A stretch of 20,069 bases of DNA from a virus (taxonomy: Duplodnaviria; Heunggongvirae; Uroviricota; Caudoviricetes), in IMG/VR virus record IMGVR_UViG_2778261642_000012, positions 1-20,069 of that record; one strand, given 5' to 3'. Below are positions 14,401-17,400 of this stretch, piece after piece. Numbering within the stretch: the first letter of the stretch is position 1; the number at the start of each line of letters is the position of its first letter. A program made the position numbers.

Positions 14401-17400
14401 AATATTGCCAGGAGCTTAGGTGTTGATATTGCTGATCTCTTTACCTCAGACCTCAAAAGTAATACTGTATGTAAAAACAGTATTAGTGAGGATGTTGCGC
14501 AGGTGAAGGATGTATTCCGTATTGAAATGCTGGATGTCAGTGCCAGTGCGGGAAATGGCCTTATCCAGGGCGGTGATGTCATTGATGTGATTCATGCCAT
14601 TGAATACAGAACTGATAATGCTGTATCGATGTTTGGTGGACGACCAGCAAATCACATTAAAGTTATCAACGTTCGTGGGGACAGTATGTGTCCAACCATT
14701 GAGCCAGGAGATCTCATCTTCGTTGATATCAGTATCAATCAGTTTGATGGGGATGGTATATATGTATTTGGTTTTGATGATAAAATTTACGTCAAACGAC
14801 TGCAAATGATACCTGATAAACTGCTGGTAATTTCTGATAATCAGATTTACCGCGAATGGGGAATTACCAGCGAAAACGAACACCGGTTTATGGTCTTTGG
14901 AAAGGTCTTAATCAGTCAGTCACAGACCCTTAAGCGACACAATTAACCCCCTACCTCAACATCAATTAGCCACCAGAAGGTGGCTTTTCATTACCTACCA
15001 AATTGCATATCTCGCAACAAAACACTTGCATAATGCGCAACTTCATTTTATCTTTCTTTCCAGACCTACAAACAAGGTACTAACAAAATTTGGTTGTAAC
15101 ACGGCGTATGGCACATGCGTCGTTAGCGGTCTGGGGACGTTAAAGGGGACAATCCACTCCTTGCTCGGGCAAACAAACCAGGTAGCCGGAATGTGCAAGT
15201 CAATGATGATGCTGATAAGACGCCTAACCAGCGCGGCGATCCGGTTTGACGCCTGGGAAGAGACCAGGGTGCAACGATGAGGGCATTTATGGAACCGCGA
15301 CAAAGTGTGGTGCCGTAACTGGCTAAGTGCTCTCAGCGTTGTGGTAATCCGCGAAATGGCGCGGCGGTAAGTATGGCGGGGTTACTCTTTCCCCGTTGAG
15401 GACACCGGATTGTCAGGCTGACCATACGCCTGAGTGACAATCCCGCCACAACAGCCACTGCTTTGGCGGTACCAGTTTGTACACTTGCTTCCGGCTGGTA
15501 CCGCTCTTTTTACAAAACAGAGAAGAGCATCACCGGACGACGGGCTCATAACCCAATCCATCCGGGCGGCTGTCACCGCAGGTGTTCTTCTCTGTTTTGT
15601 GGAGAAACTAACCGACCTTGCAGGGTCGATATGATGAGGAGCAGCAAAATGGCTAGCGAACGCAGTACTGATGTGCAGGCATTTATCGGGGAGCTGGACG
15701 GCGGCGTATTTGAAACCAAAATCGGCGCAGTTCTCAGTGAAGTCGCTTCCGGTGTGATGAACACGAAAACCAAAGGTAAGGTCTCACTCAACCTGGAAAT
15801 CGAACCGTTTGATGAGAACCGTGTGAAAATAAAACATAAACTCTCATATGTTCGCCCGACTAACCGCGGGAAAATTTCCGAAGAAGACACCACCGAAACG
15901 CCGATGTATGTCAATCGCGGTGGTCGCCTGACTATTCTGCAGGAAGACCAGGGACAATTACTGACTCTTGCCGGTGAACCTGACGGAAAACTCCGCGCAG
16001 CAGGTCATTAATATCGTTTTTAATTAACTGATTATTTATCTCATCACTGAATATTTTATATAGTGAGGACTGATTATGTCTCAGAACTTAGACGCAACCG
16101 CAATTAATCAAATCCATGCCCTTATTTCTGCTCAGGGTGTTAATGAAATTATCAGTAAGATTGGTGCCGATGCTGTGGCATTGCCTGAGAATTTCCGCAT
16201 TCATGATCTGGAAAAATTTAATTTAAATCGTTTCCGTTTCCGTGGTGCGCTTTCCACTGCCAGCATCGATGACTTTACCCGTTATTCTAAAGATCTTGCA
16301 GATGAAGGCACCCGCTGCTTTATCGATGCCGATAATATGCGTGCCGTCAGTGTGCTTAACCTGGGTACTATTGATGAACCAGGTCACGCAGATAACACCG
16401 CCACTCTCAAACTGAAAAAGACAGCACCGTTCTCTGCTCTGTTGTCTGTTAATGGCGAGCGTAACTCCCAGAAGTCACTGGCAGAATGGATTGAAGACTG
16501 GGCCGACTACCTTGTGGGCTTTGATGCTAATGGTGACACCATTCAGGCAACCAAAGCGGCTGCGGCAGTCCGTAAAATCACAATTGAAGCAAACCAGACC
16601 GCTGATTTTGAAGACAATGACTTCAGCGGCAAACGCTCCCTGATGGAGTCTGTCGAAGCGAAAACCAAAGACATTATGCCAGTGGCATTTGAATTTAAAT
16701 GCGTTCCGTTTGAAGGCCTGAAAGAACGTCCGTTTAAATTACGCCTCAGCATTATCACTGGCGATCGTCCTGTACTGGTTCTGCGCATTATTCAGCTGGA
16801 AGCGATGCAGGAAGAAATGGCTAACGAATTTCGTGATCTGCTTGTTGAGAAATTCAAAGACAGCAAAGTAGAAACCTTTATTGGTACTTTCACCGCCTGA
16901 TTTCATTACTGCAAATGCCCCTGCGGGGGCATTTATGGAAACGTAATTAACTCAATAATCACCGGATGGTGAGAGCTTCCTTTTAGCAGAATTCAGCGCG
17001 GTGCAGCGCATATAAAGTGGAGAACGAAATGTCATTTATTAAAACTTTTTCTGGGAAGCATTTTTATTATGACAAGATAAATAAAGACGACATCGTGATT
17101 AACGATATCGCAGTTTCCCTTTCAAATATCTGTCGCTTTGCAGGACATCTTTCACACTTCTACAGCGTCGCCCAGCATGCGGTGCTTTGCAGCCAGCTGG
17201 TACCGCAGGAATTTGCTTTTGAAGCGTTAATGCATGATGCAACAGAAGCATATTGCCAGGACATCCCCGCTCCACTGAAACGCCTTCTTCCTGACTATAA
17301 ACGGATGGAAGAAAAAATAGATGCCGTAATCCGTGAGAAATACGGGTTACCCCCGGTTATGAGCACGCCTGTGAAATATGCCGATCTCATCATGCTGGCA

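Follow-up and report, generated by a model that had tools for sequence, protein, structure and literature searches.

A conserved LexA box inside the cI repressor gene of lambdoid prophages and a candidate nested C-terminal isoform

The cI locus and the LexA box within it

The stretch of DNA analysed here (the window, 20,069 nucleotides in full, positions 1 to 20,069 of the IMG/VR virus record IMGVR_UViG_2778261642_000012) represents the early region of a lambdoid prophage, mEp460/SfII-like and nearly identical to Escherichia phages PhiR40_1 and mEp460, and the element in question is a LexA operator, or SOS box, that lies within the coding sequence of its cI-type repressor gene. Over the ymfL-cro-cI segment (13340-15000) nucleotide identity is 99.8% to PhiR40_1, 99.3% to mEp460 and 90.6% to Shigella phage SfII, and at least 80% of this segment is found in 1033 of 5426 complete E. 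coli genomes. The cI gene itself is 99-100% identical to cI of PhiR40_1 and mEp460. Its product combines an N-terminal helix-turn-helix (HTH) domain (Pfam HTH_3, residues 7-62, E=1e-10) with a C-terminal Peptidase_S24 domain (residues 104-218, E=6e-19), separated by a variable linker, and because it also carries an Ala99-Gly100 cleavage motif, Ser144 and Lys181, the 230-amino acid protein is, by its sequence features, a classical cleavable CI-type repressor. On the minus strand, divergent from cI, lie a cro-like HTH gene, a CII/YmfL-like gene and a Rha-type gene, and TTGCGCAA-like repeats are found in the cro/cI control region at 14170-14240, with more at 15000-15050. The cI mRNA is probably leaderless, by homology with Salmonella phage ST64B, the cI protein of which is 84% identical to that of the window: the primary transcription start site (TSS) of ST64B cI coincides with the first base of its ATG (PMC3963941 supplement). 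This ATG follows AATGTAATGAACGC in ST64B, and the corresponding sequence of the window (14235-14256) is AATGTAATAAACGC-ATG.

The LexA box at 14463-14482, TACTGTATGTAAAAACAGTA, is real. It falls in the part of cI that encodes the linker between the HTH_3 and Peptidase_S24 domains, both of its half-sites are perfect, and its spacer is A or T at seven of eight bases. Nowhere else does the window match TACTGT-N8-ACAGTA exactly, and no match turns up in any of 100 dinucleotide-preserving shuffles of the sequence; when up to two mismatches are allowed, one further site appears in the window, at 9244-9263. A LexA position weight matrix was assembled from 25 E. coli sites, 14 of which were confirmed in Table 4 of PMC3009722, and it scores the box at 25.3 bits, close to the upper end of the 12.7-27.5 bits spanned by the training sites. 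The umuD and sbmC operators are both TACTGTATATAAAAACAGTA (PMC3009722, Table 4); the window box differs from them at one spacer base, and the box of the SfII allele is identical to TACTGTATATAAAAACAGTA. An earlier note, made from the window sequence alone, had pointed to a consensus-grade LexA box in the linker-coding part of cI, had judged it very unlikely to arise by chance and had suggested weight-matrix scoring, and its description of the site holds. Rfam yielded no RNA family at or close to the box, whether searched with its gathering thresholds or, around cI, with a cut-off of E <= 1.

Conservation of the box and the internal start that accompanies it

Homologues of the gene were collected from annotated phages, from one genome per bacterial species, and from IMG/VR, with distant queries giving the diversity, and were clustered at <90% nucleotide identity into 79 lineages. 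In 74 of these 79 clusters a LexA box occupies the same codons, scoring at least 14.7 bits in all 74 and more than 18 bits in nearly all. Its first base is nucleotide 207 or 210 of the gene in the 40-lineage subset with tabulated positions, and nucleotide 213 in Fels-1. The homologues from genomes and annotated phages span at least 14 genera, with protein identity as low as 52%, and their hosts comprise Escherichia, Shigella, Salmonella, Citrobacter, Klebsiella, Kluyvera, Pseudescherichia, Buttiauxella, Trabulsiella, Pantoea, Mixta, Rosenbergiella, Proteus and Serratia.

The protein encoded around the box is a poor candidate for the object of this conservation. The linker is unalignable apart from the pattern T-V-x-x-x-S, and the three variable residues within that pattern vary only in ways compatible with an operator, ACT GTA [TAT/TGT/CAT] [AAA/ATA/AAT] [nnC] AGT, that is, ACT GTA yrT AwA nnC AGT. 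Among 41 box-bearing sequences the codon is ACT for Thr71 in 100%, GTA for Val72 in 92.5% and AGT for Ser76 in 97.6%, whereas in 53 other columns with a conserved residue of fourfold or sixfold degeneracy the commonest codon accounts for just 51-54%. In a set of 80 near-identical alleles (34 distinct sequences) box variants are few and confined to tolerated positions, with CTGT and ACAG untouched. The near invariance of the synonymous positions, the unalignable linker and the sparing of CTGT and ACAG in allelic variants together exclude chance and protein-level constraint, and functional constraint on the box as DNA is strongly supported by these comparisons. The palindrome thus did not prove to be missing from close homologues, and conservation at synonymous positions, the check proposed in the earlier note, came out clearly in its favour; its general idea, that LexA provides a second SOS input to the lysogenic switch, is strongly supported by the conservation.

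What might a LexA operator in the middle of a repressor gene control? Between the box and the start of the C-terminal domain (CTD) lies a Shine-Dalgarno (SD)-like sequence followed by an in-frame GTG, from which a 147-amino acid isoform is predicted, containing the whole S24 domain (Pfam Peptidase_S24, E=2e-19) and 16 residues before the Ala-Gly site, and lacking the HTH. Across homologues, mean anti-SD pairing peaks in the columns just 5' of the CTD, at -6.1 to -6.9 kcal/mol, whereas the average over the gene is -2.0 (sd 1.6). The column that precedes a conserved [FY]R[VI] holds a start-capable codon (GTG, ATG or TTG) in 13 of 17 lineages, and where the Val of this column is replaced by Met or Leu, the codon remains a start. 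An SD-led in-frame start (dG <= -5) between the box and the LDVSASAG motif was found in 16 of 17 box-bearing lineages, later in 40 of 40, and then in 74 of 74; when synonymous codons are resampled with the protein held fixed, such a start occurs on average in 3.3 of 17 and at most in 8, and none of 1000 resamples attains the observed mean. The SD is encoded by differing residue combinations (E-D, K-D, E-G, G-D, Q-E, R-R and Q-G-G), with the rare Arg codons AGG and AGA forming it in Fels-1 (AGG AGA aat gat GTG) and in ST64B-type and Pantoea alleles, and the distance from box to start is 20-38 nucleotides, mostly 29-32. SD-led starts are absent from frame +2 in all 40 representatives. Frame +1 has an SD-led ATG in 24 of the 40, which we set aside as a by-product of the GAT-GTG context, and its open reading frames (ORFs) run to only 6-53 codons.

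Box and SD-led in-frame start occur together without a discordant case: 74 clusters have both, five have neither and none has only one. The five box-less clusters, which also lack the internal ribosome-binding site (RBS), are phage Turner (44% identity), two Dryocola prophages, Phaseolibacter and lineage L343. One of the Dryocola alleles (L025) retains a degenerate box remnant, CGCTGTGCAAAAGCACAGCG, without an RBS, and L196, the sister of L343, combines a weak box and a TTG start codon, which suggests that box and RBS decay together. Coupling of the box to the internal RBS and start is strongly supported by this pattern of joint presence and loss. It also bears on whether the box could be a chance palindrome, or a relic of an HTH gene having fused to a LexA-regulated, umuD-like S24 gene. 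The CTD does resemble UmuD by sequence, and SfII-type alleles carry the umuD operator unchanged, but the shuffles exclude chance, a relic would have decayed at synonymous sites that are instead near-invariant across 74 lineages, and the RBS decays wherever the box decays; we give this explanation next to no credence.

A candidate LexA-gated promoter and its possible product

For LexA bound within cI the earlier note had offered three mechanisms: an effect on transcription elongation, an internal promoter and an antisense promoter. Only a sense-strand internal promoter gains from the comparative data, in that TTTACN-17-TACTGT is conserved and an SD with in-frame start accompanies the box in 74 of 74 box-bearing and 0 of 5 box-less clusters. 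This sense-strand signal, in which the left half-site of the box doubles as a putative -10 hexamer, is the top position-conserved sigma-70-like signal within 260 nucleotides on either strand in 18 homologues, with a mean score of 6.15 in a weight-matrix scan across homologues, where the background is -4.1 (sd 2.65). TTTACN lies 17 nucleotides 5' of the box in 30 of 40 representatives, and TACTGT is found in 36 of 40. This arrangement makes a weak candidate sense promoter that overlaps the box, where LexA could occlude it.

The other two mechanisms fare worse. On the minus strand the same 18 homologues have no position-conserved -35/-10 pair, and the best candidates differ in their hexamers from lineage to lineage. 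A palindrome with an AT-rich spacer does provide -10-like hexamers on both strands, and a minus-strand ORF occupies 14223-14582, but an antisense promoter, with an RNA running towards cro and acting against cI expression, gives no account of the SD and in-frame start that are conserved on the sense strand, and we consider it extremely doubtful. The elongation block found no specific support. In its fullest form, LexA would act as a roadblock or pause site for transcripts from the cI promoters, tuning the amount of CI or of the isoform, with no internal promoter and with the RBS used on the full-length leaderless mRNA only. A leaderless cI mRNA, as expected from ST64B homology, would let an SD-led internal start compete well, and the predicted internal promoter is weak and was undetected by a strict scan. 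Yet to our knowledge LexA is not an efficient block to elongation, a block strong enough to matter would cut CI synthesis in unstressed lysogens, just when the lysogen needs it, and neither the joint loss of box and RBS nor the fixed 17-nucleotide spacing of the box from a -35-like hexamer would be explained. A roadblock is distinctly unlikely.

The best-supported explanation is a LexA-repressed internal promoter that drives the 147-amino acid, CTD-only isoform, and we hold it to be moderately probable. In an unstressed cell, host LexA on the box would cover the -10 hexamer and the predicted TSS and so occlude a weak sense promoter. DNA damage would activate RecA, LexA would be cleaved and the internal promoter would fire, giving a short transcript that brings its own SD and in-frame GTG; the terminator after cI, which is annotated in SfII as well, would stop full-length and nested transcripts alike. 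Translation would yield a protein (V84-N230) with the C-terminal oligomerisation and S24 domain, including the cleavage site, and without the DNA-binding domain. With a strength close to that of the umuD and sbmC operators, the cI operator would be expected to stay closed unless the SOS response is deep or sustained. The headless isoform would then form mixed oligomers with full-length CI and weaken cooperative operator binding, acting as a built-in dominant-negative antirepressor that sharpens or accelerates commitment beside RecA-stimulated CI self-cleavage, and it would also bias an infecting phage away from lysogeny in cells that are already SOS-induced. Dominant-negative mixed oligomers appear to be the most likely and most economical role for the isoform, with a RecA decoy as the main alternative.

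Several observations weigh against this LexA-gated promoter and isoform, or limit what can be asked of them. A strict consensus promoter scan of 13850-15500 reported no promoter at the box, which is why we regard TTTACC-17-TACTGT as weak, and its -10 hexamer, TACTGT, matches the consensus at three of six positions. Conservation of the -35 hexamer is not independent evidence, for the hexamer encodes conserved residues, and because of this and of its weakness we treat the promoter as inferred. The significance values ignore phylogeny, a concern eased by the diversity of codon contexts that give rise to the SD. Ribosomes could also use the internal RBS on the full-length mRNA, so that some of the isoform would be made constitutively, and since the cI mRNA is probably leaderless, an SD-led internal start would be relatively competitive on it. 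Published data on two homologues count on this side as well. For ST64B cI, differential RNA-seq of strain SL1344 gives the leaderless primary TSS and an upstream secondary TSS and no internal one (PMC3963941 supplement), although the conditions were non-SOS, where repression is expected, and the missing internal TSS is therefore uninformative. In a lexA3(Ind-) host a fusion to the Fels-1 late operon is still induced, whereas induction of the Gifsy phages is abolished (PMC3121763). Fels-1 induction without LexA cleavage means that the LexA-gated unit was dispensable in that plate assay and was not the trigger, and any role it has must be modulatory, in threshold, timing or the choice between lysis and lysogeny.

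FsoR, the 52% identical repressor of Fels-1, has both a box of 23.5 bits and the RBS, AGGAGAaatgatGTG, and FsoR-FLAG, tagged at its C-terminus, yields "cleavage products", in the plural, after mitomycin C (Lemire et al., PMC3121763); the plural favours the isoform, because a single cut of the RecA type leaves only one tagged fragment. The gene-level transcripts per million of ST64B cI rise 1.6-fold on peroxide shock (250.8 to 393.6), which we did not use as evidence because reads 5' and 3' of the box cannot be separated. Specific masking of the internal RBS within the long mRNA was considered and found unconvincing: the RBS has an unpaired probability of 0.33 in the long transcript, 0.47 in the short one and 0.37 after shuffling of the upstream part, and the native value falls below the shuffled one in just 45 of 74 cases.

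The same nested unit could be turned to the opposite end. A LexA-controlled CTD isoform might restrain induction by offering RecA an extra substrate that shields full-length CI, raising the damage threshold or allowing recovery. The evidence for a nested unit is identical for this and for the dominant-negative reading, and the data fail to separate the two. The isoform retains the Ala-Gly site and the Ser/Lys dyad and should be a RecA-stimulated substrate, its closest solved relatives by sequence, UmuD and UmuD', also engage the RecA filament, and induction without LexA cleavage fits an isoform that is not the trigger. A shield whose synthesis has to await LexA cleavage is late, however, and would need to reach abundance from a weak promoter; we think a restraining role unlikely.

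A further twist comes from the phage itself, which encodes a 108-amino acid protein with a LexA-type DNA-binding domain (Table 1). It is 43% identical to residues 1-86 of E. coli LexA, with a near-identical recognition helix (RSVNAAVEHLRAL vs RSPNAAEEHLKAL), and, lacking an S24 domain, it is not cleavable; once host LexA has been destroyed, it could re-occupy the LexA boxes of host and phage. Given its full LexA_DNA_bind domain, it might even be the main ligand of the cI box in this phage, in place of host LexA. The paralogue was found in the window, SfII and mEp460 only, and it is not in the examined 12 kb of Fels-1, which has both box and RBS. It therefore cannot explain conservation of the box throughout the family and is at most an added layer that re-closes the operator once host LexA is gone, and as the principal ligand it is very improbable.

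Taken to its furthest, the analysis allows the tentative proposal, possible rather than probable in our estimation, that a widespread enterobacterial prophage CI is two genes in one, in which a LexA-gated headless CTD isoform poisons (or buffers) full-length CI and so gives a LexA-timed input apart from RecA-stimulated cleavage, and that in the phage of the window the LexA-like DNA-binding protein could re-close the operator once lytic genes are on, making the pulse transient. The allele family is found in about a fifth of complete E. coli genomes, and counts among its carriers Stx2-converting phages, serotype-converting phages of Shigella, and ST64B and Fels-1 of Salmonella. How it behaves thus matters for the mobilisation of toxin and virulence genes under DNA-damaging antibiotics. 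More generally, the case suggests that a strong transcription-factor site within a gene, of the kind commonly written off as non-functional, can point to a nested gene.

Neighbouring features and relation to known systems

The features of the window are collected in Table 1. Besides the box in cI, a second strong LexA-like box lies between rusA (9309-9704) and a KilA-N-domain gene on the minus strand (ATG at about 9144, end at 8331); here a minus-strand TTGGGT-16-TACTGT has the same layout as in cI, and the KilA-N gene may be LexA-controlled. The intergenic rusA/KilA-N box is absent from mEp460. That phage (L001) has two adjacent LexA boxes at 18811-18858, 5' of a dinI-like gene, and another, CACTGTTTATTTTTACAGTA, at 1073-1092, at the 5' end of a DNA methylase gene, and these additional boxes indicate several SOS inputs in this phage group.

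Table 1. Features of the window discussed in the text (positions within the 20,069-nucleotide stretch)
Feature	Position	Strand	Remarks
cI-type repressor gene	14254-14946	+	230 amino acids: HTH_3 N-terminal domain, variable linker, Peptidase_S24 C-terminal domain
LexA operator (SOS box) TACTGTATGTAAAAACAGTA	14463-14482		cI codons N70-I77 (aaT ACT GTA TGT AAA AAC AGT Att)
Putative -35 hexamer TTTACC	14440-14445	+	codons L-F-T, end of HTH domain
Putative -10 hexamer TACTGT	14463-14468	+	coincides with the left half of the box
Predicted TSS	about 14474-14478	+	placed from the putative promoter
SD-like GAGGA	14488-14492	+	10 nucleotides 5' of the internal GTG; anti-SD duplex -6.3 kcal/mol
Nested in-frame ORF, predicted CTD-only isoform	14503-14946	+	GTG at V84 (14503-14505); 147 amino acids, V84-N230
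Ala99-Gly100 cleavage motif	14548-14553	+	from the cI translation
Ser144	14683-14685	+	Ser/Lys dyad of cI, with Lys181
Lys181	14794-14796	+	Ser/Lys dyad of cI, with Ser144
Stop codon common to cI and nested ORF	14944-14946	+	
Intrinsic terminator after cI	14968-14985	+	7-bp stem with 5 GC pairs, then TTTTC
Divergent cro/cI control region	14160-14253		repeated TTGCGCAA-like operator motifs and promoter of the (probably) leaderless cI mRNA
cro-like HTH ORF	13896-14156	-	divergent from cI; from the ORF list and Pfam
Phage protein with LexA DNA-binding domain	9701-10027	-	108 amino acids; Pfam LexA_DNA_bind, E=3e-19
Second LexA-like box CACTGTTCATAAATACAGTA	9244-9263		21.9 bits; intergenic, rusA (9309-9704) / KilA-N-domain gene
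C4 antisense RNA	12807-12894	-	Rfam, 83.6 bits
isrK RNA	12919-12995	-	Rfam, 67.9 bits
Cluster of four tRNA genes	5335-5641	-	Rfam tRNA, 44-74 bits

The region 3' of the cI terminator (14990-15460) contains operator-like repeats, CTCGCAAC and ATGCGCAAC, and TTGCAT-17-TATCTT, probably the leftward early promoter, followed by about 400 nucleotides without a convincing ORF; no Rfam family was matched in 14990-15460. In ST64B the peroxide- and nitric oxide-induced small RNA STnc1310 was considered as a transcript from within cI and rejected, for it sits 326 nucleotides 3' of cI, in the leader of the leftward operon. The C4 and isrK RNAs lie inside a 383-amino acid ORF that is annotated Rha in relatives, exactly under its 'Ash' Pfam match (codons about 120-183). 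This ORF is probably over-called; the locus may instead read isrK, then C4, then a Rha-type gene of smaller size, an order like that of P1-type immunity and of the Gifsy-1 isrK locus. A contig titled Actinomadura rugatobispora (L030, 1407 bases) also carries a cI allele of enterobacterial type, LexA box included, most likely through contamination of an actinomycete assembly.

SOS induction of lambdoid prophages is usually accounted for either by self-cleavage of the repressor on activated RecA or by a separate antirepressor under LexA control, and the cI locus suggests a further possibility, that a LexA-gated unit for a truncated repressor is lodged within the repressor gene. No earlier description of an intragenic LexA box in cI, of truncated repressor isoforms, or of the box sequences of this phage, ST64B or Fels-1 was found in a search of openly accessible literature. 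The nearest functional parallels are the LexA-repressed phage antirepressors, such as Tum of coliphage 186 and AntC of N15. The GfoA, GfhA and GftA antirepressors of the Gifsy phages belong with them, in that host LexA gates a product that acts on the immunity repressor (PMC3121763). As proposed for the cI unit, LexA in these systems directly gates a phage product that acts on the repressor, and LexA cleavage feeds into induction. However, Tum, AntC and the Gifsy proteins are encoded by separate small genes elsewhere, act on non-cleavable repressors and are required for induction, whereas the cI unit would be nested in frame, with the repressor's own CTD as its product and a repressor that is cleavable; and in the Fels-1 homologue, unlike the Gifsy type, LexA cleavage is not required for induction.

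As a repressor, the window CI resembles lambda CI, P22 C2 and Fels-1 FsoR, having the HTH, the Ala-Gly site, the Ser/Lys dyad and a divergent cro-like gene with shared operators. We know of no LexA box in lambda cI, and the more distant, P22-C2-like homologue of phage Turner has neither box nor internal RBS. FsoR is cleaved after mitomycin C (PMC3121763).

The predicted isoform is itself reminiscent of UmuD. The operator is the same, TACTGTATATAAAAACAGTA, in SfII-type alleles and one base off in the window, and both proteins have about 140-147 amino acids, with a short arm before an Ala/Cys-Gly site and then the S24 fold, although on the cI side the protein is a predicted one. By sequence, the closest solved structures to the CTD product are UmuD and UmuD', a weak similarity with E about 1e-4. 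No UmuC-like polymerase partner was found in the mEp460 annotation or among the window ORFs scanned. UmuD is the product of a stand-alone gene, whereas the predicted 147-amino acid protein would be an isoform of a DNA-binding repressor.

In that last respect the closest likeness is to the Tn5 inhibitor Inh and its transposase, and to the internal starts mapped by retapamulin Ribo-seq (bioRxiv 10.1101/520783), where one frame gives a full-length and a shorter form. As in the Inh type, the short form of CI would lack the DNA-binding N-terminus and is expected to form mixed oligomers with the full-length protein; unlike in the Inh type, it would have a LexA-controlled promoter of its own, set within the coding sequence of a phage immunity repressor.

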